64,000 nt of DNA, taken from Minisyncoccota bacterium (GTDB lineage Bacteria; Patescibacteriota; Minisyncoccia; Phycocordibacterales; UBA2100). Below, piece by piece: positions 2,469 to 31,644 of the stretch. Location of the stretch: the NCBI GenBank assembly GCA_035500505.1, contig DATJXE010000003.1:201697-265696 (forward strand), given 5' to 3'. Each line of letters opens with the position of its first letter. The first letter of the stretch is position 1. A model generated the notes under the pieces. The model had not been told where the DNA came from. It searched no databases and was given only the letters and a program-made list of their open reading frames with translations. A program made the position numbers and the translations under genes.

Positions 2469-2487
2469 TGCTACAATTCTGCAAATG
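2469..2487 (+). promoter_or_regulatory. Extended -10 (TGCTACAAT) 7 nt upstream of tpiA ATG (leaderless-type promoter)
   Basis: TGCTACAAT-tctgcaa-ATG. The same architecture recurs at several other genes in the window. Confidence 0.45.
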
Positions 2488-3231
2488 AAAACGACTCTCG
2501 TCGCGAACTGGAAGATGAATCCTCAGTCGATGCGCGAGGCGAAGAAACTTTTTGAAGTGACGAGGAAGGCGGCCGAAGTCGCAAAAGATGTTTCGGTCAT
2601 CGTCGCGCCGCCATCCGTCTTTTTGCGGGAGCTCGCGACGGGATACAAAGGCAAAAAAGCTTCATTCGCCGCCCAGAACGCACATTTTGAGAAGGGCGGT
2701 GCGTACACCGGAGAAATTTCCATGCAGGAAGTGAAGGATTCGAGGGCTTCTGCCGTCATCATCGGCCACGCTGAGCGCCGAGCGATGGGAGAGACCAACG
2801 AAGACACGCGAGCGAAGGTGCTCGCCGCGCTCGCCCAGAAATTGCACCCCATTTTTTGTGTGGGCGAACACAAACGCTCCGGCTCCGGCGAGCACTTTCT
2901 GTTCGTCAAAGAACAGCTGCGCGCCGGGCTCTCCGATATTACGCCCGGGAACCTCTCGAAGATCCTCATCGCGTACGAGCCGGTGTGGGCGATCGGCGCC
3001 GACAAGGCGATGTCACCCAGACAGATGCACGAAATGGCCATATTCATCAGAAAATCCATCGTCGCGATGCATGGTGATAAGGGCATGAGAATCAAAATAC
3101 TCTACGGGGGCTCGATAGATGAGGGCAACGCGCGCGAAATGATCGTCGAAGGAGACGTGCAGGGACTCCTGGTCGGGCGGGCTTCAACCGATGCGGAAAA
3201 GTTCGCCGCACTCATCAAGTCGCTGGCATGA
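2485..3231 (+). CDS. tpiA: Triosephosphate isomerase
   Basis: 'VANWKMN' N-terminal TIM signature, 'AYEPVWAIG' active-site region, 248 aa. Confidence 0.9.
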   Translation: MKTTLVANWKMNPQSMREAKKLFEVTRKAAEVAKDVSVIVAPPSVFLRELATGYKGKKASFAAQNAHFEKGGAYTGEISMQEVKDSRASAVIIGHAERRAMGETNEDTRAKVLAALAQKLHPIFCVGEHKRSGSGEHFLFVKEQLRAGLSDITPGNLSKILIAYEPVWAIGADKAMSPRQMHEMAIFIRKSIVAMHGDKGMRIKILYGGSIDEGNAREMIVEGDVQGLLVGRASTDAEKFAALIKSLA

Positions 3232-4364
3232 AATGCATCAATGAAATTCCCCCGGGCGAGCTGAAAGGCAAGCGCGTCGTCTTGCGCAGCGACTTCAACG
3301 TACCGCTCGATAGGGCCGGCAAAGCTTCCGACGTGTTCCGGCTCAAAAAAGGCTGGGCAACGGTCGAATACCTTTCAAAAGCGGGGGCGAAGGTCATCGT
3401 TCTCTCGCACATTGGCCGTGATCCGGGAGAATCGCTCGCGCCGGTCGCCGAGGCGTTGAAGCAATTCGGTACGGTCCACTACGTCCAAGACCTTCTCGGT
3501 CCAGCAGCGCGCAGCGCGGTCTCCGCCATAGCCGAAGGGGAGATCGTCCTGCTCGAAAATTTGCGGAGCGACCCGCGCGAAACCGCCAACGACGAGAGTC
3601 TCGCCAAAGAGCTTGCCGCGCTCGGTGAGGCATATGTCGATGATGCGTTCGCCGCGGCACACCGAGCCCACGCATCCATAGTTGGCATCCCGAAATTCCT
3701 CCCACACTATGCCGGCATACTTTTGTGCGAGGAGGTGAGGGCACTGAACGCAGCGCGAACTCCCTCTACGCCCTCTTTCGCCATTCTTGGCGGCGCAAAA
3801 TTCGAGACCAAGGCACCGCTCATCAAGTCACTTCTCGCGGCGTATGATCACCTCTTCCTGACCGGCGCGCTTGCAAATGATGTGTTCAAGGCGAAGGGCC
3901 TGCCCGTGGGCATTTCGCTCGTTTCCAAAGAATTGCCTGGGCAAGATGTTCTGAACCATCCACACTTCCTCGCACCCGTGGACGTCACTTCTGAATTGCC
4001 CAACAAACAGGCCCGAGTAGAGAAGCCCGAGCAGGTCGGTGCGGACGAAAAAATCGTCGACATTGGCCCCGATTCGATCGCGCTCATCGCGCCATACATC
4101 GAGCGTGCCAGTTTCATTCTCTGGAACGGACCGACCGGCATATATGAGAGCGGTTACACGCATTACACGCAGACGATAGCCCAGCTCATCGAACAAGCAG
4201 TAGCGCGCGGCGCAAAGGCAGTCATCGGCGGCGGCGACACCATCGCTTCAATACAAGAAAGCGGCATAGATGAATCGAAGGTCGGATTTCTCTCGACCGG
4301 TGGCGGCGCCATGCTCGAGTATTTGTTGCAAGGGACGCTGCCGGGGATAGACGCACTGAACTAG
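3228..4364 (+). CDS. pgk: Phosphoglycerate kinase
   Basis: 'RVVLRSDFNVPLD' N-terminal PGK signature, 378 aa. ATGA overlap with the tpiA stop. Confidence 0.9.
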   Translation: MKCINEIPPGELKGKRVVLRSDFNVPLDRAGKASDVFRLKKGWATVEYLSKAGAKVIVLSHIGRDPGESLAPVAEALKQFGTVHYVQDLLGPAARSAVSAIAEGEIVLLENLRSDPRETANDESLAKELAALGEAYVDDAFAAAHRAHASIVGIPKFLPHYAGILLCEEVRALNAARTPSTPSFAILGGAKFETKAPLIKSLLAAYDHLFLTGALANDVFKAKGLPVGISLVSKELPGQDVLNHPHFLAPVDVTSELPNKQARVEKPEQVGADEKIVDIGPDSIALIAPYIERASFILWNGPTGIYESGYTHYTQTIAQLIEQAVARGAKAVIGGGDTIASIQESGIDESKVGFLSTGGGAMLEYLLQGTLPGIDALN

Positions 4365-4410
4365 TTGCATTTATTCCGGCATCCTATTCAATGAAAAGAG
4401 GGAGGATAAC

Positions 4411-4542
4411 ATGAAACCGTACAGCACGTTCCCCCGGGAACGAATGACGAGTTTAGATGTCGCTTTCGCGATCGTCCTCATCGTGGGCATCACGGGAATT
4501 CTTGTCGGCCTGAGTAATGGTCAGGTTCCCTGGCCCTTTTAG
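4411..4542 (+). CDS. Small membrane protein (43 aa)
   Basis: Strong SD (GGGAGG) 7 nt upstream of ATG. Single TM helix 'VAFAIVLIVGITGILVGL'. Below the ORF-track size cutoff. Confidence 0.35.
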   Translation: MKPYSTFPRERMTSLDVAFAIVLIVGITGILVGLSNGQVPWPF

Positions 4543-4557
4543 CGGGGTTGAGATGAG

Positions 4558-4683
4558 ATGAGTCACCAGATACGAGAGACCATAATCAGGGCGGACTGGG
4601 GCGAGAAAGTCGTTACGGTCCTGGCCGCGAGCGCGGCAGTCTTCGTCATCGCGGCGATTGCCCTTCTGATGGGCACGATCTGA
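4558..4683 (+). CDS. Small membrane protein (41 aa)
   Basis: Lies in tandem with the previous small ORF. TM helix 'VVTVLAASAAVFVIAAIALLMG'. Confidence 0.3.
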   Translation: MSHQIRETIIRADWGEKVVTVLAASAAVFVIAAIALLMGTI

Positions 4684-4742
4684 AACGTTTCCAGTCAGTC
4701 TCGAACAAATGCACATGGCGCCACTCTCGGCGCCATGTATGT

Positions 4743-5153
4743 TTATCTCAACGCAGTGCGAAGTTTTTCTGCCGTTTGATCGGCTTCGCCTTCCAGATAT
4801 GAGCGTTGCGGCATGAGTTTGAGGCCGTCTCCTTTGAAGCGGGGGATGACGTGCACGTGCGGGTGGTGAACGACTTGCCCGGCATGTTCGCGATTGTTCA
4901 TACCGATGTTGACCCCGTCGGCTTTGAGTGTTTTTTCTATCGCTATCGCTATCTTACGCACCGCTTCCGTGACGGCTTGCCAATCCTCTGGAGCGATATC
5001 AAAGATGTTGGTCGAGTGTTTTTTTGGTATTACGAGGGTGTGTCCTGCGTTCACTGGGCGAATGTCGAGGAACGCGAGCGTCTTCTCGTCCTCGTACACC
5101 TTGTAACTAGGAAGTTCCCCGCGCACTATTTTGCAGAAGATACAGTCAGGCAT
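4743..5153 (-). CDS. HIT family protein (histidine triad nucleotide-binding)
   Basis: 'HHPHVHVIPR' histidine triad plus 'CIFCKIV' N-terminus. Start placed at MPDCIFCK; a -10 TATACT lies 6 nt upstream. Confidence 0.8.
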   Translation of the reverse strand: MPDCIFCKIVRGELPSYKVYEDEKTLAFLDIRPVNAGHTLVIPKKHSTNIFDIAPEDWQAVTEAVRKIAIAIEKTLKADGVNIGMNNREHAGQVVHHPHVHVIPRFKGDGLKLMPQRSYLEGEADQTAEKLRTALR

Positions 5154-5214
5154 AGCGAAAGTATAGCCCGCCCGTACCGAATGGTACATTCGGGCGGATG
5201 CTACAATTCGTTGA
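5154..5214. promoter_or_regulatory. Divergent HIT/recJ promoter region with imperfect palindrome
   Basis: GCTATACT (minus) and TGCTACAAT (plus) elements sit 6-7 nt from the respective ATGs. They flank ccgcccgtaccgaatggtacattcgggcgg (7-bp outer arms, inner gtacc/ggtac). Confidence 0.35.
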
Positions 5215-6891
5215 ATGGAAGTATCCGAACTCGTGCGCTCCCTCCTCTCAAAAAGAAGTATCGAGTCGGAGCTCGACATCGCCGCATTCCTGAATCCCGA
5301 CTACGACCTGCACACCCACGACCCATTTCTGCTGAAAGACATGGACGTAGCGGTCGCGCGGTTGCTATCAGCCATCGAGAGGAGTGAACACGCGGCCGTA
5401 TACGCCGATTTCGACTGTGACGGCATACCGGGAGCGGCAATTTTGTCTGATTTTTTTGAAAAAATCGGATATAAAAATTATGAAGTTTACTTGCCGCATC
5501 GCGACAGGGAGGGGTACGGCTTTCACCTCGACGCGATAGACGCGCTCGCGGCGCGCGGGGTGACGCTCATCATTACAATTGACGTCGGCACGACGGCGGT
5601 AGAGGCCGTCGCACACGCGAAACGAAAGGGGATCGACGTCATCGTTACCGACCATCACGAGATCCCGGGTGCTCTGCCTGACGCGGTAGCAATTCTCAAT
5701 CCGAAACTCGCTCCGTATCCGTTCGGGGGATTGTGTGGCGCAGCTGTCGCGTTCAAGTTCGCATGTGCGACGTTGCGAGAAGGGAAACAACGCGCGCTGC
5801 CCGCGTTCGCGTCCATCCAAGACGGCTGGGAAAAGTGGCTCTTGGACCTGGTCGCCATCGCCACCATCGCAGACATGGTCCCGCTCGTCGGAGAGAATCG
5901 CACACTCGCGTTTTGGGGCTTGCAGGTGTTGCGCAAATCCCCGCGGCTCGGTATTTCGGCTCTGTGCAATAAACTGCGCCTGCGCAAAGCGGAATTGACC
6001 GAGGACGACATTGGATTTTCCCTCGCTCCCCGCATCAACGCGGCTTCGCGCATGGACGACCCAGAACTTGCCCTTAGACTTTTGACGACGCACGATGCCG
6101 CTCAAGCCGATGCGCTTGCCGCGCAACTCGAGTCGCTCAATACGAAACGCAAAGGTCAATCGGGCGCCATCGTTCGCGAAGCAAAACGCCGCGCGCGCGA
6201 CAGGTTCCGCAAAGAAGAACAAGTCGTCGTTTTGGGCAACCCCGAATGGAAACCGGCGCTCCTCGGTCTTGCAGCCAACTCCGTCGTCGAAGAGCGCGGA
6301 GGAGTCGTGTGCCTGTGGGGCCGCGATGCGCTCGGCCGCCTGAAAGGTTCATGCCGCTCCGACGGCTCGCTTTCGGTCGTTGAATTGTTCTCCAACTCGA
6401 ACATTTTCGAAGAATTTGGCGGGCACGCAAAAAGCGGAGGATTTTCCGTTTCCCATGAGCGCGTGCACGAGTTGCAAGAAGCACTCGCAAGTGCAGCGGC
6501 CGCCTGTGCGACCACTGTTCTTCAGGAAACTGCCCAGCACGACGCCAGGATCACGCTTTCCGAGATCTCCCGACGGCTTTTCGACGAGATCTCTTCTCTT
6601 GCCCCTTTCGGTATCGAAAACCCGAAGCCAGTCTTTCTTATCGAGAAAGCGACGGTCACGGCGGTCCGTGCGTTCGGCAAAGAGAAGAATCACATCGAGT
6701 TGACCCTCGATGGCGACTGTTTCGCCCCCGTGCGTGCGTTCGATTTTTTCAGGCGGGCCGAGCAGTTTTCCCTTGCTCCCCAGGTCGGAAGTCCTGCAAA
6801 AGTATTGGCAACCATCGAGCGCGACTCGTTCCGTGGCGGTCTCGCGCTCCGGCTCGTCGACATCCTCGCTGTGGATGACTCTCGGAAGTAG
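5215..6891 (+). CDS. recJ: Single-stranded-DNA-specific exonuclease RecJ
   Basis: DHH motifs 'DFDCDGI' and 'TDHHE', DHHA1-like C-terminal part, 558 aa. Confidence 0.85.
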   Translation: MEVSELVRSLLSKRSIESELDIAAFLNPDYDLHTHDPFLLKDMDVAVARLLSAIERSEHAAVYADFDCDGIPGAAILSDFFEKIGYKNYEVYLPHRDREGYGFHLDAIDALAARGVTLIITIDVGTTAVEAVAHAKRKGIDVIVTDHHEIPGALPDAVAILNPKLAPYPFGGLCGAAVAFKFACATLREGKQRALPAFASIQDGWEKWLLDLVAIATIADMVPLVGENRTLAFWGLQVLRKSPRLGISALCNKLRLRKAELTEDDIGFSLAPRINAASRMDDPELALRLLTTHDAAQADALAAQLESLNTKRKGQSGAIVREAKRRARDRFRKEEQVVVLGNPEWKPALLGLAANSVVEERGGVVCLWGRDALGRLKGSCRSDGSLSVVELFSNSNIFEEFGGHAKSGGFSVSHERVHELQEALASAAAACATTVLQETAQHDARITLSEISRRLFDEISSLAPFGIENPKPVFLIEKATVTAVRAFGKEKNHIELTLDGDCFAPVRAFDFFRRAEQFSLAPQVGSPAKVLATIERDSFRGGLALRLVDILAVDDSRK

Positions 6892-6894
6892 GGA

Positions 6895-7605: not shown

Positions 7606-7719
7606 TCATCCATATGTACCGGCGAATTCTATATAACTCCCGGTCGGTCAGCAAACATATTCTCCGGACTGTTCCACACACAGGATGTTTTTTTACTCAC
7701 AGCGTGCTACGCTCAAGAC

Positions 7720-8445
7720 ATGGAATTCTCAGCAGAGGCGAGCATCCGCTTGGGGTGGGAAACCTTCAAAAAGCGCCCGTGGTTTTTGATAGGCGTGCCA
7801 CTTCTCGCCGTTATCATCGTGGGCATCGTCAGCGCGGCGTTCGGCGAACTGCAAAAACTCGGCGCTGTTTTCGCCCTGTTGGTGTTCGTCGCGAACATAT
7901 ACGTGACGACGGTATACAAAATGGGGGCTACCAACTTCGTGCTGAAAGCGGTCGAAAATACCGAAACGCTGCAAGTCATGGACTATTGGCAACCGCACCC
8001 GTTCTGGAGATACCTTGGCGCAGGTATTCTTGTTGGGCTTTGCGTTCTGGCGGCGTTTATTCTGGCACTCGTTCTTTCCGGTCTTATCGCCGGGGTCGGA
8101 TACGCGATTGCGGGCAGTGCGGCGGCCGGCGTCTGGTTCGTCATCGCGCTCGTGCCGCTTTCGATAGTGTTCGTAGGCCTCGTCGCGATCGCGCTTGTTT
8201 TTGTTCGCTACCTCGTAATTGCCCGGGGACTCGGCCCGGTGGAAGCTCTTGAGGAGAGCGCTCGCATCACAAAAAGCCATCGGTGGGGCATTCTCTGGTT
8301 CTTGGTCCTCTGCTTGTTGCTGAACGTGCTTGGCCTCGTCTGCCTCATTGTCGGCCTCCTGGTGACCATTCCGGTCACATCGTTGGCGCTCGTGCACGCA
8401 TACCGCACGTTGGAGCAAAAAGCAGGTTCCTCCGTGATGGCATAA
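7720..8445 (+). CDS. Hypothetical polytopic membrane protein
   Basis: Six or more hydrophobic helices and no recognisable catalytic motif. A TGCTACGCT -10-like element lies 6 nt upstream of the ATG. Confidence 0.45.
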   Translation: MEFSAEASIRLGWETFKKRPWFLIGVPLLAVIIVGIVSAAFGELQKLGAVFALLVFVANIYVTTVYKMGATNFVLKAVENTETLQVMDYWQPHPFWRYLGAGILVGLCVLAAFILALVLSGLIAGVGYAIAGSAAAGVWFVIALVPLSIVFVGLVAIALVFVRYLVIARGLGPVEALEESARITKSHRWGILWFLVLCLLLNVLGLVCLIVGLLVTIPVTSLALVHAYRTLEQKAGSSVMA

Positions 8446-8446
8446 C

Positions 8447-8857: not shown

Positions 8858-8889
8858 CAGGCGATTTCTTATTGGTACAATTTTGATAA

Positions 8890-10371
8890 ATGGGGTCGAG
8901 AATTTTTTGGGCGCTTTGCGTTGGATTTTTATGCGGTGTTTTCGTACGTTCGTTCGTGCCGGTCGGATGGAGTTTCGTCGCACTTCTCGCACTGTTCGGA
9001 TCTGCCACCCTCGTTTTTCAGTTCATTGATCGCGAAAAGGCACAAACATATACCGTTGTGGCCGTCACGCTTTTTGCCTGCGCCGCGGGCATCGCTCGGA
9101 TGCATGTCGCTGTTGCGACAGGGGACCCGAGCCTCACGGCTGACCTCGGCAAAAACGTCATACTTGGAGGGATAATTTTGCAGGAGCCTGATGCGCGCGA
9201 TACGACGACGCTCGTAACACTCGACGTTTCCACACTCGTCGGCGCAAACGTGCCCGTACATGCTGGCGTTCTGGTGCAACTTCCTGCACACGCGCGAGTT
9301 GCGTACGGCGAGCATGTACAGGTGTCGGGAACGTTGAAATTACCCGAAGCGTTCGACACGGGGCTCGGCAGGCAATTCGAATATCCGGAGTATTTGGCGG
9401 CGCAAGGCATCCAATACCAACTTGGTTATGCGAAGATCGATTCGATACTCGGGCAAGGTGGAGACCCGATAAAAAAGTTTTCGATACGCACTAAAGAATT
9501 GTTCCTACAGGGGCTCGACTACGTCTTGCCCGACCCGGAGGCGGCGCTCGCAGGAGGGATCACCGTAGGCGATAAACGTTCGGTCGGCCCGGATCTCTCG
9601 AGAGATTTTCAACGCGACTCCCTGGTGCACATGATCGTGCTCTCCGGATACAACATCACGGTCGTTCTGAACGCGGTCGCACGGTTGCTCGCGTGGGCCC
9701 CGAGATCCTTGCAGTTCGGCGGCAGCATTGCAACGGTCGTCTTTTTCATTTGCATGTCGGGGGGAGCGTCGAGCGCGACCCGTGCTGGACTCATGGCGCT
9801 CATCGCCGTATTCGCGCGAGCAACGCACCGCACGTATCTTGGCGAACGTGTGCTCGCGTCCGCATCGCTCGTCATGGTCGCTTGGGATCCGTGGACGCTC
9901 TGCTTCGACCCGAGTTTCCAGCTCTCCGCGCTTGCGACGCTCGGTCTCATTTTGTTCACGCCAACCTTCGCAGGCTGGTTCTCAAGAGTGCCGGAAAAGC
10001 TCGGTGCGCGCGAAATTCTCGCCTCGACCTGCGCGACCCAACTCATGGTGTTGCCGCTTCTCCTCTATCAGAACGGCACGCTTTCGCTTGTCGCCCTTCC
10101 AGCCAACCTTCTAGCGCTTCTTCCCGTACCCTGGGCGATGTTCTTTTCACTCGTCGCGGCGCTCGCTGGGATGCTGTTCGGGGGAATTGCTGCAATGGTC
10201 GCCCTCCCGGCGTACGCACTTCTCTGGTACGTCATTTCCGTCGCGCATCTTTTTGCTTCACTTCCGTTCGCTGCCATATCGATTCCCGCGTTCAGTGCGT
10301 GGTGGATATTCCTTGCATATGCGACGCTTTTGGGGTCGTTTGCGGCCTTCAAAAAGAAAACGGCGGGGTGA
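8890..10371 (+). CDS. comEC: ComEC/Rec2 competence channel core (no C-terminal MBL domain)
   Basis: DUF4131-like N-terminus plus polytopic competence domain ('VHMIVLSGYNITVV'), 493 aa. It ends without a beta-lactamase domain. Confidence 0.7.
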   Translation: MGSRIFWALCVGFLCGVFVRSFVPVGWSFVALLALFGSATLVFQFIDREKAQTYTVVAVTLFACAAGIARMHVAVATGDPSLTADLGKNVILGGIILQEPDARDTTTLVTLDVSTLVGANVPVHAGVLVQLPAHARVAYGEHVQVSGTLKLPEAFDTGLGRQFEYPEYLAAQGIQYQLGYAKIDSILGQGGDPIKKFSIRTKELFLQGLDYVLPDPEAALAGGITVGDKRSVGPDLSRDFQRDSLVHMIVLSGYNITVVLNAVARLLAWAPRSLQFGGSIATVVFFICMSGGASSATRAGLMALIAVFARATHRTYLGERVLASASLVMVAWDPWTLCFDPSFQLSALATLGLILFTPTFAGWFSRVPEKLGAREILASTCATQLMVLPLLLYQNGTLSLVALPANLLALLPVPWAMFFSLVAALAGMLFGGIAAMVALPAYALLWYVISVAHLFASLPFAAISIPAFSAWWIFLAYATLLGSFAAFKKKTAG

Positions 10372-10386
10372 CCGCCGTTTTCTTGA
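10355..10386. terminator. Bidirectional hairpin terminator overlapping the comEC stop
   Basis: aacggcgg-ggtga-ccgccgtt followed by tttcttg. Convergent genes lie on either side. Confidence 0.45.
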
Positions 10387-10399
10387 AGCATCGATGAGA

Positions 10400-12406: not shown

Positions 12407-12648
12407 CTAACGATCCCTGCAGCTTTGAGCGTTTTATATGCGCCGCGCTTTTTCATCGTTTTGAGCCCTTTCGTCGAAACGTTGATGGTTATCTTCCTGC
12501 CGAGCTCCGGCACGAAAATGGTTTTCTTTTGGATATTTACCTGACGGCGGCGAGCACCGGTCGGGTTGAACTTGGTCGCACGCGTGCGGTTGGAATACCC
12601 ACCGCCGACCTGGGACTTCTTGCCTGTTATGTCGCACACTTTTGCCAT
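12403..12648 (-). CDS. rpmB: 50S ribosomal protein L28
   Basis: 'MAKVCDITGKK...GGYSNRTRATKFNP' L28 signature. Confidence 0.75.
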   Translation of the reverse strand: MAKVCDITGKKSQVGGGYSNRTRATKFNPTGARRRQVNIQKKTIFVPELGRKITINVSTKGLKTMKKRGAYKTLKAAGIVS

Positions 12649-12706
12649 ACGTCGGCGCACTATACACAAAGAGACGTGAGCTGGCAATCCGGCTATACTT
12701 CAATGT

Positions 12707-13171
12707 ATGGGCAATCCGGAGCAACCGTCGTGGACCAATAAGAAGGGGTGGGCGCGCGCCGAAGATGCAGAAAAGCTGCTCGGGCCGGAAGAGGTGCAGC
12801 GGATACGCGACAAAAGAAAGCAAGAGCGCGAGACGCTGAGTTCTATGGATAAAATAGTGTTTGCCGAATATTATGAACACGTTAAAGAACTCGGTGGCGT
12901 TTTTGCGTACACGTATAACATAGATAAATACGGAAACTTAATTGATCCTGGAGACGGAATAGGGCCAGACCTACTTTCTTGCTCTCCATCCGAGGCGAAG
13001 AACATTGAAGGCAGGTTAGCGTATTGTTGTACAGCGGAAGACATTCGCGCAGGTGCCGCCGCGCTCACGCGGTCTTACCCGGACATGGAGTTCAGTTTCG
13101 AAGAGGATAGAACGAAGCGAACACTGGCGTATACCGTTACGCTGAAAAAGGAAGAGGGACCCGGAATTTAG
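12707..13171 (+). CDS. Hypothetical protein
   Basis: 154-aa ORF. TATACT lies 7 nt upstream of ATG (leaderless-type). No recognisable motif. Confidence 0.4.
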   Translation: MGNPEQPSWTNKKGWARAEDAEKLLGPEEVQRIRDKRKQERETLSSMDKIVFAEYYEHVKELGGVFAYTYNIDKYGNLIDPGDGIGPDLLSCSPSEAKNIEGRLAYCCTAEDIRAGAAALTRSYPDMEFSFEEDRTKRTLAYTVTLKKEEGPGI

Positions 13172-13192
13172 CAGAGTTGCTATACTGGCCCG

Positions 13193-13825
13193 ATGGATAT
13201 CACCGCCGATGTTTTCATCATCGTCATCGTCATATTCTCCGCCATCATCCACGAGGTGATGCACGGCGTTGCGGCCGATTACCTTGGCGACAAGACCGCG
13301 CGCTATGCCGGTCGCCTTACCCTCAACCCCATCCCGCACATCGATCCGTTCGGCTCCATTCTCTTGCCGCTTCTCCTCGCGTTATCGGGCTCTCCGATAT
13401 TTTTCGGTTGGGCCAAGCCGGTGCCATACAATCCCTACAACTTGCGGCCAGGACGATTCAGCGAGGCCATCGTCGCGGGGGCCGGACCTGCGTCAAACCT
13501 TGTCATCGCGCTCATCTTTGGTGCGATCGTTCGGTTTCAAGTTCTTGGCCCGACGGTCAATACGGCGCTCTTCCTCGTGGTCGTCATCAACGTCATGCTC
13601 TGCATCTTCAACCTCATTCCGATCCCGCCCCTGGACGGCTCCAAGGTGCTTGAAGCTCTCCTGCCTCGCTCTTGGCAGTACGGCTACTCCCGCTGGCGTC
13701 GGAGCATGGAGATGAATCCTTTCATCGGTATGGTATTGGTCGTCATCATTATCCTCCTTCTAGGCGGCGCGTTCAGTAACCTTATATATGCAGTTGCGAG
13801 CGGTATTGCGGGCTTTTCTTTGTAA
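13193..13825 (+). CDS. Peptidase M50 (site-2 protease) family membrane metalloprotease
   Basis: 'HEVMHG' HExxH in the first TM region, LDG motif 'PIPPLDGSKV', polytopic. TGCTATACT lies 6 nt upstream of ATG. Confidence 0.7.
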   Translation: MDITADVFIIVIVIFSAIIHEVMHGVAADYLGDKTARYAGRLTLNPIPHIDPFGSILLPLLLALSGSPIFFGWAKPVPYNPYNLRPGRFSEAIVAGAGPASNLVIALIFGAIVRFQVLGPTVNTALFLVVVINVMLCIFNLIPIPPLDGSKVLEALLPRSWQYGYSRWRRSMEMNPFIGMVLVVIIILLLGGAFSNLIYAVASGIAGFSL

Positions 13826-14287: not shown

Positions 14288-14383
14288 GTGTTCGTCCTCG
14301 TATTTCCGGGAGCTTATGCTCCCGGTCCGCTAAAAGCCTGCCATATCTTGCGTTTGTATTCAATAGATAGTACACTCGCCGAG

Positions 14384-14413
14384 TCCCCGTCGGGGATTTT
14401 TAGTTGAAACATG
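14384..14413 (+). promoter_or_regulatory. GC hairpin + U5 immediately upstream of rpsL start
   Basis: tcccc-gtc-gggga-ttttt ends 9 nt before the ATG. It could occlude an SD-like GGGGA. Confidence 0.3.
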
Positions 14414-14827
14414 GCCACAATAAACCAACTCACCCGCAAAGGCCGCACGGCCCGCCGCGGCAAGGACAAGACCATCGCGCTCTCGCGTGGCTTTAACACG
14501 CTCAAAAATCGCCCCACCTTCTATTCCTCGCCCTTCAAGCGCGGCGTCTGCACCCAGGTAACGACGAAAACCCCCCGCAAACCGAACTCCGCCATCCGCA
14601 AGATCGCGCGTGTTCGTCTCACCAACGGCATGGAGATTACCGCTTACATTCCGGGCGAAGGACACAACTTGCAAGAACACTCGGTCGTGTTGGTGCGCGG
14701 TGGGCGCGTGAAGGACATCGGTATCCGCTACACCATCGTGCGCGGCAAACTCGACACTGCCGGCATCGACAAGCGCCGTCGCGGCCGCTCGCTCTATGGC
14801 GCGAAGAAACCGAAGGGGGAGAAATAA
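14411..14827 (+). CDS. rpsL: 30S ribosomal protein S12
   Basis: '[12 protein letters not shown]', '[31 protein letters not shown]'. Carries a ~14-aa insertion and a C-terminal extension. Confidence 0.9.
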
Positions 14828-14830
14828 TAT

Positions 14831-15292
14831 ATGCGACGCCCCGTCAAAAATCGTAAACCAGTGCAGCCGGACGAAGTCTACGGCTCCGTGAAAGTATCGA
14901 AGCTCATCAATTATGTGATGGAGCGCGGCAAGAAGGACACCGCGCGCAAGATCGTCTACAAGGTGATGGAAGACCTTAAGAAAGACGGCGACCCTGTCGC
15001 GCTCTTGGAGCAGGCGCTCGAAAATGCATCGCCGACCGTCGAAGTCCGCTCACGTCGCGTCGGTGGTGCCAACTACCAGGTGCCGCGCGAGGTCAACCCC
15101 AATCGCCGCTTGAGTTTGGGCATGCGCTGGATAGTGGAAGCTGCGGAGGGCACGAAAGGTAAGCCGATGAACGAGTCGCTTTTGAATGAACTCAAAGCCG
15201 CCATCAAGAACGAGGGTGTAGCCGTCACCAAGAAAGAAACGACGCACCGCATGGCAGAGGCAAATAAAGCCTTCGCACACTTCGCCTGGTAA
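14831..15292 (+). CDS. rpsG: 30S ribosomal protein S7
   Basis: 'ANYQVPREV', 'RMAEANKAFAHF' S7 signatures, 153 aa. Confidence 0.9.
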   Translation: MRRPVKNRKPVQPDEVYGSVKVSKLINYVMERGKKDTARKIVYKVMEDLKKDGDPVALLEQALENASPTVEVRSRRVGGANYQVPREVNPNRRLSLGMRWIVEAAEGTKGKPMNESLLNELKAAIKNEGVAVTKKETTHRMAEANKAFAHFAW

Positions 15293-15314
15293 GTGCAGTT
15301 GTGCACTCGACCCC

Positions 15315-15341
15315 AAAAACCCCGCTTGGAGCGGGGTTTTT
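15315..15341. terminator. Rho-independent terminator after rpsG (bidirectional)
   Basis: aaaaaccccgc-ttgga-gcggggttttt, a perfect 11-bp stem with an A-run/U-run on both sides. Confidence 0.75.
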
Positions 15342-15359
15342 GGCGCTACAATAAATCTT

Positions 15360-15902
15360 ATGAAGCGGTACTTTATCGAGGAGTCACCGTTCTCGTATTT
15401 TTTCACCGCCGACACGCGAAGTGCGGGCCTGTGGTTCCTGGTACGCCTCTATCTCGCGTGGCAATGGTTGCAGGCCGGATGGGAGAAGCTGCACGATGCT
15501 GCGTGGGTGGGTGCCAGTGCGGGTACCGCGCTTTCCGGTTTTGTACAGGGAGCACTCGCCAAAACGACCGGCGCGCACCCGGACGTGCAAGGCTGGTACG
15601 CCTCGTTTTTGCAGACTTTTGTTCTGCCGCATGCCGCATTGTTCTCGCATCTCGTCGCGTGGGGAGAATTTTTGGTGGGGGTCGCGCTTGTCATCGGCTT
15701 CCTCACGGGCTTGTCGGCTTTCTTCGGCATCTTTATGAACCTCAACTACCTCCTTGCCGGAGCCGTGAGCGTGAATCCCATCATGTATACCCTCGGCATC
15801 GGGGTCGTGCTCGCGTGGCGCGTCGCCGGGTATTGGGGCGCGGATCGCTACGTGCTCCCGCTCTTGAGCAAGTATCTGCGGCCGCGTCTGCGGGAAGGAT
15901 GA
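15360..15902 (+). CDS. DoxX-family membrane protein
   Basis: 'RLYLAWQWLQAGWEKL' and 'AWGEFLVGVALVIGFLTG' match the DoxX/DoxD fold, 4 TM. Inserted between rpsG and fusA; TACAAT lies 7 nt upstream of ATG. Confidence 0.5.
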   Translation: MKRYFIEESPFSYFFTADTRSAGLWFLVRLYLAWQWLQAGWEKLHDAAWVGASAGTALSGFVQGALAKTTGAHPDVQGWYASFLQTFVLPHAALFSHLVAWGEFLVGVALVIGFLTGLSAFFGIFMNLNYLLAGAVSVNPIMYTLGIGVVLAWRVAGYWGADRYVLPLLSKYLRPRLREG

Positions 15903-15940
15903 ATTTCTTGCACTTTCTATTAAATCGGCTACATTACTGA

Positions 15941-15965
15941 AACGCCTCCGGGCGTTTTCTTTATG
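15941..15965 (+). promoter_or_regulatory. Leader hairpin (aacgcc-tccg-ggcgtt) + U-tract ending at fusA ATG
   Basis: A TTGCAC-16-TACATT promoter-like element lies upstream. The hairpin abuts the start codon and there is no SD. Confidence 0.4.
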
Positions 15966-18104
15966 GCACGAGACTATCCGTTGGAAAAAGTACGCAATTT
16001 TGGAATAGTGGCGCACGTAGACGCCGGTAAAACGACCACGTCCGAACGAATCCTTTACTACACCGGCGAGAGCCACAAGATCGGTGAGGTGCACGAGGGG
16101 AATACCGTAACCGACTGGATGGAACAGGAGCGCGAGCGCGGCATCACCATCACTGCCGCCGCCATCACCTGTTTTTGGAATCCGACCTACATGGGTACGG
16201 ATATTTCGCAAAAAGTCCGCTTCAACATCATCGACACGCCCGGACACATCGACTTCACCTCGGAAGTGAAGCGCTCCATGCGCGTACTCGACGGTGCGGT
16301 TGTCGTCTTTGACGGCGTTGCCGGCGTCGAGCCGCAATCGGAGACCAACTGGCGCTACGCGGAGGAGGCCAACGTGCCGCGCATCTGCTACATCAACAAA
16401 CTCGACCGCACCGGCGCATCATTCGAGAAATCCTACGCATCCATCCTCGATCGGCTTTCAAAAAAAGCGGTGCGCCTGCAGATCCCTGTCGGCGCGGAGG
16501 ATCAGTTCGAAGGCGTCATCGATCTTCTCAGCATGAAGGCATACAAGTTCGAAGGAGAAATGGGCAAGAACGTGATCGCCTACGATATTCCCGCCAATCT
16601 CATGGATGAAGCGAAGAAGTACCGCGCAGAATTGGTAGAACGCATCGTCGAAAATGATGACGTGGTCATGGCGGATTTCCTCGACGGCAAAGAAATTTCG
16701 TACGATGTCCTCAAGAAAACCCTCCGCAAAGGTGTCGTCGCGAATCAAATTTTCCCTGTCTTGACGGGTTCAAGCCTCAAAAACAAAGGGGTGCAACTCG
16801 TCCTTGATGCGGTCGTCGATTACCTCCCGTCGCCTCTGGATGTGCCGCCGGCGAAAGGTCACAACACGGATACCGGCGCAGAAGAAACTCGCCCAGCTTC
16901 CGACGAAGCTCCATTTTCCGCACTTGTGTTCAAAATTCAGACCGATCCGTTCGTCGGCCAGCTTTCGTTTTTCCGCGTCTATTCAGGAACCTTCGAAGCG
17001 GGCCAGACCATCTACGACTCCGCCAACAACAAGAAAGAACGCGTGGGACGCATCGTGCGATTACAGGCGGATAAACGCGAAGACGTGAAGACGGTCTACG
17101 CCGGCGAGATCGCCGCGGCGGTGGGCATGAAGGAAGTGAAGATCGGCCACACGCTCTGTGATGCGGATCACCCGATCGCGCTTGAATCCATCGTATTTCC
17201 CGAGCCTGTCGTTTCGATGCGTGTTGAGCCCAATACCAAAGCCGACCAGGAACGCATGGGCATGGCGCTTTCGAAGCTTTCCGACGAAGACCCGACATTC
17301 CGCGTTAAGTCCGATGCCGAGACAGGGGAGACCATCATTTCCGGCATGGGCGAATTGCACCTTGAGATCATCATCGATCGTATGAAGCGCGAGTTCAATG
17401 TGCAGGCGACGACCGGGAAGCCACAGGTCGCCTATCGCGAGACCATCCAGGGCACGAGCGACACGGAGTACAAACACATCAAGCAAACGGGCGGTCGCGG
17501 TCAGTACGGTCACGTGAAGATAAAGATGAAACCGCTCGAGCCGGTCGACCCGGACAAGAAGGTGAAGAACAATGTCGATCGCGAGGAACATTTCGAATTC
17601 ATCAACGACATTAAAGGTGGTGTCATCCCGCAGGAGTTCATTCAGCCGGTCAAAAAGGGCATCAAAGAAGCAATGGACCGCGGCGTCTTGGCGGGATTCC
17701 CCGTCGTCGACGTCTCTGTCGACCTCTATGACGGTTCCTATCACGACGTCGACTCGTCCGAAATCGCGTTCAAGCTGGCTGCCATCAACGCGTTCCAGGA
17801 GGGAATGAAAAAGGCGAAGCCGGTCATTCTCGAACCGATAATGAAATTGGAGGTCGTCGTGCCGGAGAAATTCATGGGCGACGTGACCGGCATGATAAAT
17901 TCCAAGCGCGGCGCGATAGAAGCGATGGGGGAGCGTGGACAAGCGCGCGTCATCACCGCCAAAGTGCCGCTCTCGGAACTTTTCGGCTTCACCACGCAGC
18001 TTCGTTCCGCTACCGAAGGCCGCGGTGTCCCCAACCTCGAATTCAGCCACTACGCGGTCGTTCCGCGCAATGTGCAGGAAGAGATCGTCGCGTCCAGGAA
18101 GTAA
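15963..18104 (+). CDS. fusA: Elongation factor G
   Basis: '[12 protein letters not shown]', 'DTPGHIDFT' G-domain, 713 aa. Confidence 0.95.
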
Positions 18105-18112
18105 TAAAAAGA

Positions 18113-18147
18113 CGAGGCCGTCGGCTTTACGCCGACGGCCTTTCGTT
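18113..18147. terminator. Bidirectional rho-independent terminator after fusA
   Basis: aggccgtcggc-tttac-gccgacggcct-ttcgtt. Confidence 0.65.
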
Positions 18148-18160
18148 AGTGCGCTCAGGG

Positions 18161-18562
18161 TCAATTCAAGCTGATTCCCGGAGGCCTCTGACCCACGCCG
18201 CGCTTCATGTTGAAGTTCTGCCCACCGACGAACGACTCCATGCAGTTTTGTCCGAGCGCATAGGTTAGTACGCGCAGCAGTTCATCGACGGCATTTTTTG
18301 TGCTCTCTTTGTCCGCTGGCGAAGTCCCGAACAGCACGAAGATTCCCGTTTCTTTCGTGTCGGAAAGCCATTTACCGTGAATCGTGAGCGGAAATTCATT
18401 TCGAGCCGCGCGCATCACGCAAAAAGTCGCGGCGACAGCCTTGATCTCATCGTCAGTGTGTATTTTTCCGGGCTCGATTTCGTCTGTGACGCAGCATAGA
18501 ATCGTCCAACCCACCTCCGACTTGCTCTGTTCCGGTAGTTCGACTCGCGGGCGCTCGTTCAT
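18161..18562 (-). CDS. Hypothetical protein
   Basis: About 133 aa from MNERPR. Convergent with fusA, no motif recognised. Confidence 0.3.
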   Translation of the reverse strand: MNERPRVELPEQSKSEVGWTILCCVTDEIEPGKIHTDDEIKAVAATFCVMRAARNEFPLTIHGKWLSDTKETGIFVLFGTSPADKESTKNAVDELLRVLTYALGQNCMESFVGGQNFNMKRGVGQRPPGISLN

Positions 18563-18657
18563 CGGACTTTCTCCGTTATCCGTCAGTCCACCACAACTTC
18601 GATTATGGCACATATAAAATTAACAGTCAATGAAGGCAGAGAAACCTGCTGACAAAG

Positions 18658-18720
18658 CCTTGACGCTCCAAAGCATTCTGCTACTATGTCGCCACGCACG
18701 CTCCGTGCGTATTCTTTTGC
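18658..18720 (+). promoter_or_regulatory. Sigma70-like promoter (TTGACG-16-TGCTACTAT) and 5' hairpin + U-tract leader of tuf
   Basis: Hexamers read directly. acgcacg-ctcc-cgtgcgt followed by attcttttg at the predicted 5' end. The leader is ~155 nt. Confidence 0.4.
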
Positions 18721-18845
18721 CTGAAACTTCGACTCGTGCGGATTAGCGACCCGCGTGACGCGAGCGAACGTGAAGCGAAGGATCCTGGAGCACCACTTAC
18801 TGCGTTGGCAATTAATAATTACAAGCTAATTTTTTTGTCAAAAAT

Positions 18846-20045
<1,200 letters not shown>

Positions 20046-20065
20046 TTCTCTCTAGAATTAAGCCA

Positions 20066-20100
20066 AGAAAACCCGCCGAACGGCGGGTTTTCTCGCTTTG
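20066..20100. terminator. Rho-independent terminator after tuf
   Basis: aaaacccgccg-aa-cggcgggtttt-ctcgcttt. Confidence 0.7.
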
Positions 20101-20138
20101 TCTCTTGCTAGTCCTGCGATACGGCATATAGTGAATTT

Positions 20139-20915
20139 ATGAAAGGGGTATTGTCTCCAATTGCTGCTTCGACAATCGTGCTCTTGCTTGCCTTTGCGCC
20201 ACTTTCAGCGAGTGCCGTAGTTCATGTCTCTGGATATGTAAATAGCCACGGCACTTACGTGGCTCCTTATGTGAGGAGTAATCCCAATGGTTTGAAATAC
20301 GATAATTACAGCTATACGCCTAGCCAGGGACTCTATAACCCAAGCTATGGCACAAAAGATACTGTGTGGGACACTCCAACATGGATTACAGATCCGAACT
20401 ATTATTCGGGACTGTCAGAATATCTTTCGACTCACGGTTCGTCGGGTTCCTTGGCCCCAGGTAATTACAGCGCGACATACCCAACAAATCTCTCTGTACC
20501 AGCTAATGCCACTGCATATGGTTCCACGTGGTATTGCAACAATGGCTATAAAACTATATACGACAGCTCGTACAACAAGATAGGTTGCACGCAAGTCGTC
20601 GCTCCAGCGAACGCAACGGTTTATGGCTCAGACTGGTATTGTAATACCGGATACAAAACGCAATATGATTCGTCGTTCAATAAAGTAGGTTGCACCAAAG
20701 TTGTGGCACCCGCGAACGCCTCCATCTATGGATCAGATTGGTATTGCAATACCGGTTATAAGACACAGTACGACAGCTCGTTTAATAAAATCGGCTGTGT
20801 GAAAGTTGTTGCACCACCGAATGCGACCGTTTATGGCAGTGATTGGTACTGTAATGCCGGGTATAAAACACAATATGATAATTCTTTCAATAAAATCGGA
20901 TGCATCGCAAACTAA
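20139..20915 (+). CDS. Secreted tandem-repeat protein (4 x ~40-aa Cys-containing repeats)
   Basis: Signal peptide, then four repeats 'VVAPANATVYGSDWYCNTGYKTQYDSSFNKIGC'. Markedly AT-richer than its flanks. Confidence 0.6.
   Translation: MKGVLSPIAASTIVLLLAFAPLSASAVVHVSGYVNSHGTYVAPYVRSNPNGLKYDNYSYTPSQGLYNPSYGTKDTVWDTPTWITDPNYYSGLSEYLSTHGSSGSLAPGNYSATYPTNLSVPANATAYGSTWYCNNGYKTIYDSSYNKIGCTQVVAPANATVYGSDWYCNTGYKTQYDSSFNKVGCTKVVAPANASIYGSDWYCNTGYKTQYDSSFNKIGCVKVVAPPNATVYGSDWYCNAGYKTQYDNSFNKIGCIAN
20490..20915 (+). repeat. Four tandem ~120-bp DNA repeats (coding)
   Basis: Near-identical units 'tatgg[ct]tcagactggtattgtaataccgg.tacaaaac.caatatga..cgtcgttcaataaa' read directly. Confidence 0.7.
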
Positions 20916-21004
20916 CTTAGAATACCAACTTGCGACCTCGCCATTCTGACGGAAGGGAAGTGGTGTCAGGTACCATTCTTTTTGCGCGATGATATTCTTC
21001 TGAT

Positions 21005-21400
21005 GTGAACTGGGACGAATTCGATAAGGAGATGCGCGAGCTGCAGAGCAGGATAGACTGGCGGCCGGATATTATTTGCGGGATCGCACGGGGCGGCGTG
21101 ATACCGGCGACTATTCTCTCGAAGCGAATGAAGGTAAAAGATATGTTCACGCTCTCGCTCGACAGGCAGGGCGAGCGCAAGATTTCTGCGTTCGCTATAG
21201 TCGACATTTCAGGGAAGAAAATATTGCTCGTTGAAGATATGCTCGAAACAGGTCGTGGTCTCATTGCCGGCAAGAAGTTCCTTGAAGAGCGCGGGGCGGA
21301 AGTGAGGACGGCCTGCCTCTATACGATGCCAAAATCAGAAATAGTCCCAGACTTTTTCCTGCGTCAATTTCCCGACGTCCAACATTTTCCCTGGGAGTGA
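21005..21400 (+). CDS. Small phosphoribosyltransferase-domain protein
   Basis: 'KILLVEDMLETGRGL' type I PRTase PRPP-binding motif. Only 131 aa. Confidence 0.5.
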   Translation: MNWDEFDKEMRELQSRIDWRPDIICGIARGGVIPATILSKRMKVKDMFTLSLDRQGERKISAFAIVDISGKKILLVEDMLETGRGLIAGKKFLEERGAEVRTACLYTMPKSEIVPDFFLRQFPDVQHFPWE

Positions 21401-21401
21401 T

Positions 21402-21935: not shown

Positions 21936-21937
21936 TT

Positions 21938-22480: not shown

Positions 22481-22580
22481 ATCGCGGGTGAGTTTGACAG
22501 GAACGTTGCGGTTGATGATAGTGGGGGCCGCTTCAACCCAGCTCTTTGATGTACGAAGAGCCCAACAGAAGGGGACGGTC

Positions 22581-23261: not shown

Positions 23262-23385
23262 AGAGCGTGGATGTCCGGATCTTTGCCGCGCGGGTGACCG
23301 CGCGGTATTTTTTATATTCAATAACTTTGTGGGCAAATGAGAAGGCCGCGAGAGGGCGGCCCTCTGCGCGGCGTTGGTCGTGCGG

Positions 23386-23775
23386 TCAGCCGACGACTTT
23401 TTCGACGGTACTGAGCGCGAGCCGGAGATCGTCCATGTCCCCGCTCGTCATGAGCTCCTTCAGGCTCCTGCGGCCGAGCTCATTGTGCTTCACATTGATC
23501 CACCGCTCCGTTGCGTCGTTGTTTTCCTCGTTCGCGCCAAAGACCGCATCGAGCATGAATTTCAGCCTGACGATAACTTCAGCGCGGACAAGAACATCGC
23601 GACTCTTGGCGAGCCAGCTCCGCAGGCTATTGGTATCGGTTACGACCTCCGGTTCGAACCCGAATGATCGGGCTTGTTCCTGCAACGTGAAGGCGAGATC
23701 TTGAAGTGCCTTCAGAGCTTTCTCAGTTTTCTCGGGCAATGCAATCGTCCGATTCTCCTGCGCAACGCTTGTCAT
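23386..23775 (-). CDS. DUF2384 (Xre/MbcA/ParS-like antitoxin toxin-binding domain) protein, no adjacent RES toxin
   Basis: C-terminal 'DAVFGANEENNDATERWINVKHNELGRRSLKELMTSGDMDDLRLALSTVEKV' resembles the DUF2384 consensus. Confidence 0.35.
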   Translation of the reverse strand: MTSVAQENRTIALPEKTEKALKALQDLAFTLQEQARSFGFEPEVVTDTNSLRSWLAKSRDVLVRAEVIVRLKFMLDAVFGANEENNDATERWINVKHNELGRRSLKELMTSGDMDDLRLALSTVEKVVG

Positions 23776-23918
23776 AGCCGTCTCCCGACCAGTGTGCGAT
23801 ACGGCGTACCGCTTCCTATGCCGTAGGCTAGTACGGAACGGTGCAAGGGTCAATAAATAGGTTTTTCATGATAAGAGGCTTATACTTGCAGACTATTAAG
23901 AGGTAATTTCGTAAGCAT

Positions 23919-24248
23919 ATGAAAAAGTTTTTTGTTTTGTATAAGGCCCCTATTGAAGAGTTCACGGCGGCGATGAAAAAGATGACGCCGGAAGACCAGC
24001 AGAAAAGTAAGGCGGAGTGGCAGGAATGGATGACGAAGCACAAAGCAGATACCGTTGATATGGGCGCGCCGGTGGGGAAGACCAAGGCGGTTACTCGCAC
24101 GGGTACGAGTGACATCAAGAACGACATTGGCGGCTACTCTATTGTGCAGGCAGAATCGCACGATGCGGCAACGAAGATCTTCACCGACAGCCCGCACCTC
24201 AAGCGCATGAACGGTTCCATCGAGGTGATGGAGATTATGGAAATGTAG
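23919..24248 (+). CDS. Hypothetical protein (AT-rich gene)
   Basis: 109 aa with no motif recognised. Confidence 0.35.
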   Translation: MKKFFVLYKAPIEEFTAAMKKMTPEDQQKSKAEWQEWMTKHKADTVDMGAPVGKTKAVTRTGTSDIKNDIGGYSIVQAESHDAATKIFTDSPHLKRMNGSIEVMEIMEM

Positions 24249-24264
24249 GTGCTACAATGGGCCT

Positions 24265-24426
24265 ATGCCCCGGATCAAAATAGAGAACCACATGTTCTCC
24301 GGCGGGATTTGGTTCGCCGCCTGGCTTTTCACCATCGGATTCTTGAAGCTCTCCTTCTGGAGCGCCGTCCTCGCGATACTCATCTGGCCCTACTATATCG
24401 GCGCGGCATTCGCGCTGATGCATTGA
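24265..24426 (+). CDS. Small two-TM membrane protein (53 aa)
   Basis: TGCTACAAT lies 6 nt upstream of ATG. 'GIWFAAWLFTIGF...SAVLAILIWPYYIGAAFAL'. Below the ORF-track cutoff. Confidence 0.3.
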   Translation: MPRIKIENHMFSGGIWFAAWLFTIGFLKLSFWSAVLAILIWPYYIGAAFALMH

Positions 24427-31639: not shown

Positions 31640-31644
31640 GTGAT

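Follow-up and report, generated by a model that had tools for sequence, protein, structure and literature searches.

What starts transcription and translation where a promoter-like word stands almost directly in front of the start codon and no Shine-Dalgarno (SD) sequence lies between the two? The question is raised by a stretch of 64,000 nucleotides from a Minisyncoccota bacterium (Patescibacteriota, class Minisyncoccia; GenBank assembly GCA_035500505.1, contig DATJXE010000003.1, positions 201,697 to 265,696 of the forward strand), analysed at its full length and called the window here, in which many genes are preceded at a distance of 6-7 nt by a word resembling a -10 element. These words are very probably extended -10 promoters of the sigma-70 type that fire at the A of the ATG and give leaderless mRNAs. 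An initial annotation had reported eight such sites between positions 2469 and 24267 and had seen no SD sequence at any of them; all eight were found in place when the sequence was read at each, and no SD-like 4-mer precedes any of these starts at 4-12 nt. The pattern is present in that range but runs on to the end of the window, and within the range the pairs at comEC (8890), orf258 (20139) and a phosphoribosyltransferase gene (21005) had been overlooked.

Spacing between the -10 word and the start codon

Gene starts in the window were assigned from the structure of the open reading frames (ORFs), without annotation. The combination of TGNTANNNT, six nucleotides and ATG was found nine times versus 0.69 +/- 0.91 expected, and that with seven nucleotides six times versus 0.72 +/- 0.87 expected, with none of 100 dinucleotide-preserving shuffles as high in either case. 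Distances from TGNTANNNT to the next ATG form a sole peak at 6-7 nt (9 and 6 sites), while every other spacing has about 0.8 sites. The stricter combination proposed for counting by the initial annotation, TGnTAnAAT-N6-7-ATG, occurs five times in the window against 0.09 expected. Strong -10 words of the form [TGN or NGC]TAYANT number 27, and 17 of them have an ATG 5-8 nt downstream, with one more at 10 nt. Viewed from the genes, a TANNNT box lies 5-8 nt upstream of 26/82 starts versus 2.5% of random positions, and is found at 19/45 candidates for the first gene of a transcription unit versus 7/37 internal genes, several of these seven being near-consensus 9-mers. No SD-like 4-mer occurs 4-12 nt upstream of the start at any leaderless candidate in the window. 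A chance or compositional coincidence, for which only the general frequency of TANNNT could be cited, deserves practically no credence, as 15 sites stand where about 1.4 were expected, no shuffle came as high, the rate at gene starts far exceeds that at random positions, and the peak is repeated in 703 kb of related sequence and absent in an outgroup.

The window is itself Kaiserbacteria-like. Its relatives were found via RecJ (best matches 58-68% identity) and comprise metagenome-assembled genomes of Candidatus Kaiserbacteria and other Parcubacteria/Paceibacterota. They supplied 60 of 80 loci, all from the Candidate Phyla Radiation (CPR), one per species representative with flanks of about 10 kb; the other 20 loci form an outgroup of Firmicutes, Desulfobaccales and similar groups. 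The CPR set was split into 40 Kaiserbacteria-like loci with a GC content of at least 49% (703 kb) and 20 lower-GC Paceibacteria loci. Counts of TGNTANNNT-to-ATG distances were 102, 38 and 30 at 6, 7 and 8 nt in the former (background about 11) and 38, 25 and 23 in the latter (background about 13), with no spacing peak in the outgroup loci (8 and 17 at 6 and 7 nt). Beyond the window, where the initial annotation had proposed that the motif be counted, the 6-8 nt peak is thus present in the recJ neighbourhoods of the CPR and missing from those of the outgroup. The architecture is lineage-wide in Kaiserbacteria-like Parcubacteria.

The coupling is also specific for the start codon. When the 5'-most start codon was taken for every ORF of at least 120 codons in the related loci, the spacer-6 peak was found for ATG (106/801), was weak for GTG (11/375) and was absent for TTG. 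Restriction of the coupling to ATG is what a dependence on a 5'-terminal AUG predicts (background in PMC4007540).

Starts of orthologous genes were anchored by tblastn of the window proteins, and a TANNNT box was sought 5-8 nt before the homologous start. The box was present in 39/44 (89%) orthologues of tpiA, 19/22 (86%) of the DUF975 gene, 42/54 (78%) of HIT, 21/27 (78%) of orf275 (ATG 11579), 33/45 (73%) of recJ, 11/24 (46%) of the M50 peptidase gene and 14/36 of comEC. Among the controls, it was found in 1/39 (3%) for the operon-internal pgk, 0/31 for rpsL, 2/15 (13%) for fusA, 6/30 for rpsG and 1/40 (2%) for rpmB, whose orthologues retain a spacer of 9-10 nt in 23/40 cases. The upstream sequences of orthologues are otherwise unalike, and the flanks of the recJ box are not conserved. 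The flanks differ, and the information in the sequence logo is confined to gTGnTAyAaT and the ATG, so the arrangement is held by selection on position rather than by inheritance of the sequence. The architecture also turns over between relatives: sod and RNase H, leadered or internal in the window, are leaderless in about 40% of relatives, and orf275 is the opposite case.

Promoter-start pairs and their interpretation

The window holds 22 firm promoter-start pairs with spacers of 6-8 nt, 14 of them with the TGn extension, in addition to three pairs with spacers of 9-10 nt and four ambiguous ones. Transcription units number about 44, as estimated from strand changes and gaps after the ribosomal-protein operon was merged, since the crude gene caller had missed small genes there. 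On this estimate, about 22-29 of some 44 units (50-65%) would be leaderless or nearly so. The firm pairs are as follows.

tpiA, plus strand: TGCTACAAT at 2469-2477, 7-nt spacer, ATG 2485; gene 2485-3231
HIT, minus strand: GGCTATACT at 5168-5160, 6-nt spacer, ATG 5153; gene 4743-5153
recJ, plus strand: TGCTACAAT at 5199-5207, 7-nt spacer, ATG 5215; gene 5215-6891
DUF975 gene, plus strand: TGCTACGCT at 7705-7713, 6-nt spacer, ATG 7720; gene 7720-8445
comEC, plus strand: TGGTACAAT, 8-nt spacer, ATG 8890; element 8873-8892; gene 8890-10371
orf154, plus strand, divergent from rpmB: GGCTATACT at 12691-12699, 7-nt spacer, ATG 12707; gene 12707-13171
M50 peptidase, plus strand: TGCTATACT at 13178-13186, 6-nt spacer, ATG 13193; gene 13193-13825
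DoxX, plus strand: CGCTACAAT at 15344-15352, 7-nt spacer, ATG 15360; gene 15360-15902
orf258, secreted repeat protein, plus strand: GCATATAGT, 6-nt spacer, ATG 20139; element 20124-20141
Phosphoribosyltransferase, plus strand, a rare GTG case: TGATATTCT, 6-nt spacer, GTG 21005; element 20990-21007
orf53, small membrane protein, plus strand: TGCTACAAT at 24250-24258, 6-nt spacer, ATG 24265
YcaO operon, minus strand: TGCTAGAAT at 33838-33830, 6-nt spacer, ATG 33823
orf101, plus strand, divergent from YcaO: TGGTACTAT, 6-nt spacer, ATG 33929; element 33914-33931
orf148, with signal peptide, plus strand: TGCTATAGT, 6-nt spacer, ATG 37983; element 37968-37985
DHFR/RibD_C-like gene, minus strand: AGATACTAT at 54228-54220, 7-nt spacer, ATG 54212; gene 53706-54212
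Type IV coupling-protein-like ATPase (935 aa), plus strand: TGATATACT, 6-nt spacer, ATG 54265; element 54250-54267
orf130, with signal peptide, plus strand: TGTTATAGT, 7-nt spacer, ATG 57546; element 57530-57548
orf82, plus strand: TGATATATT, 6-nt spacer, ATG 58074; element 58059-58076
ndk, plus strand: TGCTAGAGT, 7-nt spacer, ATG 58358; element 58342-58360
orf119, membrane protein of 119 aa (59615-59974), plus strand: terminator-like hairpin, then GTGTACGAT, 6-nt spacer, ATG 59615; element 59600-59617
SLOG/LOG-like gene, plus strand: TGATATAAT, 7-nt spacer, ATG 61343; element 61327-61345
Methyltransferase, minus strand: TGCTACAGT at 62631-62623, 6-nt spacer, ATG 62616

The pairs with longer spacers are near-leaderless.

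rpmB (L28), minus strand: GTGTATAGT, 10-nt spacer, ATG 12648; element 12646-12667; predicted 5' untranslated region (5'UTR) of about 3 nt
infC (IF3), minus strand: perfect TGCTACAAT, 10-nt spacer, ATG 63829; region 63173-63848
rpsJ (S10), plus strand: GCATACTCT, 9-nt spacer, ATG 24479; element 24461-24481

No in-frame non-canonical start was found within the infC spacer. In E. coli, infC starts with AUU, which is used for autoregulation; the gene in the window differs in starting with ATG.

The consensus of the coupled word is gTGnTAyAaT. In the logo of the spacer-6 sites (n=106), T reaches 61% at -15 and G 75% at -14, the base at -1 is a pyrimidine in 66% of sites and that at +1 is A, and there are about 0 bits around -35. 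A classical scan for paired -35 and -10 hexamers over 1-20 kb gave 6 sites versus 8.8 expected, so two-hexamer promoters are not enriched; the classical model was rejected for the leaderless promoters on these grounds, which argues for promoters of the extended -10 class. Bacterial RNA polymerase usually starts about seven bases after the -10 hexamer, which is where a 6-nt spacer places the A of the ATG. Extended -10 promoters without a conserved -35 element would thus position RNA polymerase to begin on this A, 7-8 nt past the hexamer, and the resulting mRNA would begin with 5'-AUG and have neither a 5'UTR nor an SD sequence. By analogy with leaderless mRNAs studied elsewhere, the 5'-terminal AUG would be bound directly by the ribosome together with initiator tRNA, and we infer that these mRNAs would be translated by the leaderless pathway. 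The initial annotation had read the pairs as a sign of widespread leaderless translation, with a word of the TGnTAyAAT type as the main promoter, and the spacing, the orthologues, the controls, the specificity for ATG and the N-terminal domain boundaries all support this reading.

Gene layout around the boxes is similarly tight. The ATGs of the divergent pairs HIT/recJ, rpmB/orf154, DHFR-like/ATPase and YcaO/orf101 are separated by only 52-105 bp (61 bp for HIT/recJ and 52 bp for DHFR-like/ATPase), and the -10 box of DoxX, like that of orf119, directly follows a terminator-like hairpin, in the DoxX case one with a T-run. Short divergent gaps and hairpins abutting -10 boxes leave no room for leaders. 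Extreme intergenic compaction is also seen at 13172-13192, 24249-24264 and 61327-61342, which consist of an extended -10 element and its spacer only: the 21 nt before the M50 gene are essentially promoter and spacer, the 16 nt before orf53 are one nucleotide, the 9-mer and the spacer, and before the SLOG/LOG-like gene the TGn of TGATATAAT at 61327 is itself the TGA stop of the upstream gene, the gap to 61342 being 13 nt. Separately, a nested inverted repeat (CCGCCCG..GTACCgaatGGTAC..CGGGCGG, 5168-5197) lies exactly between the -10 boxes of HIT and recJ, upstream of both predicted start sites, and may be an operator.

The same word also occurs farther from start codons. It lies 27 nt before the ATG of fusA (GGCTACATT), 57 nt before that of orf80 (TGGTATAAT) and, as a TACAAT -10 element at 27911-27916, 36 nt before that of orf69. 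Two further leadered genes serve as contrast cases.

sod, minus strand: TGCTATACT at about 11544-11536, 32 nt before ATG 11501; U-rich leader, no SD
rpsL, plus strand: -35 TTGCGT, -10 TAGTACACT, ATG 14411 34 nt past the -10; 14350-14413; no SD

Its presence 27-57 nt upstream of leadered genes shows that the word acts as a promoter rather than as a signal to the ribosome. This bears on the suggestion that TAnnnT is an A/U-rich, non-SD ribosome-binding element on longer transcripts, as in the Bacteroidetes-type group B, which we consider very improbable. In its favour, the lineage has no SD enrichment, so that leadered genes need some other ribosome signal, and the regions upstream of non-leaderless starts are AT-rich as well (44% GC versus 56% in the window). 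However, TG at -15/-14 is typical of extended -10 promoters, the word directly follows terminator-like hairpins and occupies divergent gaps of 52-61 bp, and genes that lie inside operons or are leadered and highly expressed lack it (pgk 3%, rpsL 0%, fusA 13%), although they have to recruit ribosomes too. The motif of group B precedes internal genes as well (PMC6028130), a distribution that is not seen here.

The Rfam scan of the window gave no matches at gathering thresholds, and the single tRNA called by ARAGORN, a 98-nt tRNA-Phe on the minus strand (14476-14573), falls within the rpsL ORF and was treated as a false positive. As the window thus offered no RNA-gene promoters, the conserved rpsL promoter was used as an independent promoter reference. 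Across Kaiserbacteria-like genomes it reads cTTGCa, about 17 bp and then TAGTAnnnT, so a -35 element is present at this strong leadered promoter and none is seen at the leaderless ones. An apparent orphan promoter, TGCTACAGT at 28064, was dismissed, as it lies inside orf69, a small ORF not called before.

Finally, the start codons themselves might be wrong, with the true starts farther downstream and the beginnings of the ORFs being 5'UTR transcribed from the -10 box. The assignment was made from ORF structure, and some of the proteins, namely orf154, orf53, orf148, orf130 and orf82, gave no Pfam match by which the N-terminus could be fixed. Nevertheless, profiles of TIM, HIT/DcpS_C and RibD_C begin 2-11 residues from the proposed methionine: TIM at residue 5 of the tpiA product (profile position 3), HIT/DcpS_C at residues 4-11 (DcpS_C residue 4 being profile position 2) and RibD_C with profile position 2 at residue 2 of the DHFR-like protein. 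DUF4131 fits as well, starting at residue 23 of the comEC product (profile position 3). The N-terminus MKTTLVANWKMN of the tpiA product includes NWK, a conserved motif of the N-terminus. Orthologues align from residue 1, and in most of them a start codon of their own falls at offset 0. Random downstream starts, moreover, would give no peak at exactly 6-7 nt before the ATG that comes first in the ORF. A general misassignment is therefore scarcely credible.

The longest-ORF rule does misplace the starts of HIT, the DHFR-like gene, sod, rpmB, purD and an RNase J-like gene, for which the starts supported by domains or homology differ, and it conceals orf119 and orf69 altogether. The former is hidden beneath a longer spurious frame (region 59573-59974, plus strand). 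For the beta-CASP/RNase J-like gene (59971-61329, plus strand), ATG 59971 was preferred to GTG 59710, which was rejected; the chosen codon overlaps the stop of orf119 and couples the two genes through ATGA. The candidate starts of orf462 are ATG 25269, with no promoter at leaderless distance, and GTG 25293, with a perfect TATAAT at 6 nt.

Leadered and operon-internal genes

How the remaining genes are started is a separate matter. SD-like 4-mers lie 4-12 nt upstream of 6/82 (7%) starts in the window versus 8% of random positions. In Kaiserbacteria-like ORFs of at least 200 aa, the figure is 7.8% versus 11.2% inside ORFs, and in the lower-GC Paceibacteria it is 6.0% versus 6.0%, compared with 59.3% versus 6.7% in the Firmicutes-dominated outgroup. 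At homology-anchored CPR starts, 12/505 (2.4%) carry such a 4-mer. No 16S 3' end, and hence no anti-SD, is present in the window or the related loci. The only genes of the window that look SD-led are orf43 at 4411 (GAGGGAGGA), orf69 at 27953 (AAGGAG), orf80 at 24948 and a cupin gene at 26756; the first three encode small secreted or membrane peptides. The previously uncalled orf69 (27953-28162, plus strand) encodes 69 aa, comprising a signal peptide and a mature part rich in Cys, and its AAGGAG lies 7 nt before the ATG.

The initial annotation had assigned SD or hairpin leaders to the genes that are not leaderless. The SD leaders did not hold up, as SD-like motifs are not enriched, whereas the hairpin leaders did. 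The rpsL leader contains a 4-bp GC hairpin (CCCC/GGGG) followed by a U-run. This element is retained in about 14 genomes, where 4/5 pairs show compensatory changes; rpsL is flanked by a divergent gene, and the hairpin is therefore not the terminator of an upstream gene. Leadered genes with high expression share this feature: a short GC hairpin with a U-run that ends 8-14 nt before the ATG, without SD, is found at rpsL, fusA, rplC and orf189, while the hairpin of tuf lies some 150 nt before the ATG, where the 5' end is predicted.

rpsL hairpin leader: 14350-14413
fusA hairpin leader: 15927-15965
tuf hairpin leader: 18660-18720
rplC hairpin leader: about 38640-38682
orf189 hairpin leader: about 27230-27271

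Possible roles of the hairpin-U leader are those of attenuator, standby site or stabiliser of the 5' end.

Upstream of non-leaderless starts, the base at -1 is T in 57% of cases. Most internal genes begin at -4 to +4 nt relative to the stop codon before them, which is their commonest arrangement, and this placement together with T at -1 suggests, from the sequence, that they may be started by termination-reinitiation without SD. Among operon-internal starts (for example 669, 8447, 21402, 48706 and 51929), six consist of a stop codon, one base and ATG, and six more overlap the stop as ATGA.

At M50, orf53, SLOG, purD and orf99, the -10-like word could likewise be incidental and expression due mainly to termination-reinitiation on polycistronic mRNA. 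For this handful of genes we regard such an explanation as possible though rather unlikely. The gaps are just 2-21 nt without a terminator, the TA of the purD hexamer is supplied by the upstream TAA stop, and a stop-to-start distance of -4 to +4 nt is what internal genes commonly have. Yet M50 (TGCTATACT), orf53 (TGCTACAAT) and SLOG (TGATATAAT) carry near-consensus 9-mers at exactly 6-7 nt, and the M50 box recurs in 46% of orthologues versus 3% for pgk.

Several observations nonetheless weigh against leaderless transcription from these promoters, or limit its reach. The transcription start at the A of the ATG, which we infer from the sequence, is placed from spacing alone. M50, orf53, SLOG and purD lie 10-21 nt after a same-strand gene with no terminator and may also be read from polycistronic transcripts. 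The pairs at orf99, orf381, purD and GTG 25293 are ambiguous, orf275 has no box in the window although its orthologues carry one, and the related loci represent one neighbourhood, around recJ, rather than whole genomes.

Neighbouring loci and relation to known systems

Other features of the window lie beside these genes. A cluster on the minus strand (28217-34234) comprises genes for YcaO, a nitroreductase, a PQQ-like beta-propeller and two unknown ORFs; its YcaO and nitroreductase genes (31645-33823) had a codon-usage score too low for the crude gene caller. The divergent orf101 encodes a protein with many Gly, Ser, Asp and Cys residues in its C-terminal half, and together with the cluster it may form a system of the type that makes ribosomally synthesised and post-translationally modified peptides. 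The gene order at 14411-20045 is unusual, with DoxX inserted between rpsG and fusA, and rpsJ (24479-24847) lies 14 kb from the other genes of the ribosomal-protein operon, rplC among them (38680 onward). S10 and S12 have N-terminal extensions, in agreement with the larger uS10 and uS12 described for CPR (PMC9297842).

The architecture is not a new mechanism; it is a known one in a different lineage. In the GeneMarkS-2 classification, a Pribnow box 6-8 nt before the start marks the leaderless first genes of group C, which comprises 90% of Actinobacteria and 97% of Deinococcus-Thermus, with 25-50% of units predicted to be leaderless (PMC6028130). In Deinococcus deserti, 60% of mRNAs were found to be leaderless by differential RNA sequencing (PMC4007540). 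The group C definition and the D. deserti data together mean that the mechanism is already known. As in group C of the Actinobacteria and Deinococcus-Thermus, including Mycobacterium tuberculosis, TAnnnT lies 6-8 nt before unit-first genes here, with no SD and, by prediction, no 5'UTR, and the share of such units is large, at an estimated 50-65% or so. In contrast to those systems, the lineage here is Parcubacteria (CPR), with a strong TGn extension; coupling is almost limited to ATG starts, whereas GTG is common in D. deserti; and the remaining genes lack SD enrichment, whereas those of group C are described with ribosome-binding sites (PMC6028130).

Likenesses to other systems are partial. 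Bacteroidetes-type group B genomes carry one non-SD motif before all genes, internal ones included (PMC6028130). The non-leaderless genes here resemble them in their AT-rich, SD-free upstream regions, but TAnnnT is confined to unit-first genes and nearly absent before pgk, rpsL and fusA. The leaderless promoters resemble extended -10 (TGnTATAAT) sigma-70 promoters in having TG one base upstream of the hexamer and little or no -35 element, and differ from the usual members of that class in dominating the window and being positionally locked to start codons, while strong leadered promoters of the rpsL type in the same clade do carry the -35 element TTGCa at about 17 bp.

For the translation side, loss of the anti-SD motif has been reported in a subgroup of Parcubacteria (Tsurumaki et al. 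2022, PMC9297842), and the lack of SD enrichment on the mRNA side in Kaiserbacteria-like and other Paceibacteria loci fits that report. The passages of that paper on anti-SD, SD and translation initiation say nothing of a replacement for SD or of leaderless genes, and our literature search, whose coverage is incomplete, found no paper on leaderless genes in Patescibacteria/CPR. We judge it an even chance that Paceibacteria/Parcubacteria like the present organism have given up SD-guided initiation altogether, with about half of their units leaderless and the rest started independently of SD through AT-rich or hairpin-U leaders or by stop-start reinitiation.

Gene finders that expect SD sequences will misplace starts in these genomes, and promoter-start coupling corrects the cases in the window; group C may already be the model that the NCBI annotation pipeline applies to these genomes. 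An ancestral status among mRNAs has been proposed for the leaderless type (discussed in PMC4007540), and a third large, deep-branching bacterial lineage rich in them bears on that debate. The CPR have reduced ribosomes and part of the Parcubacteria is reported to lack the anti-SD (PMC9297842); the present data indicate how genes are laid out in such a lineage, with about half of the units leaderless and the others free of SD. If SD-guided initiation has indeed been abandoned, the arrangement would mirror, on the side of the mRNA, the 16S anti-SD loss published for a Parcubacteria subgroup, and these bacteria with their reduced ribosomes would be a natural model of SD-free bacterial translation.

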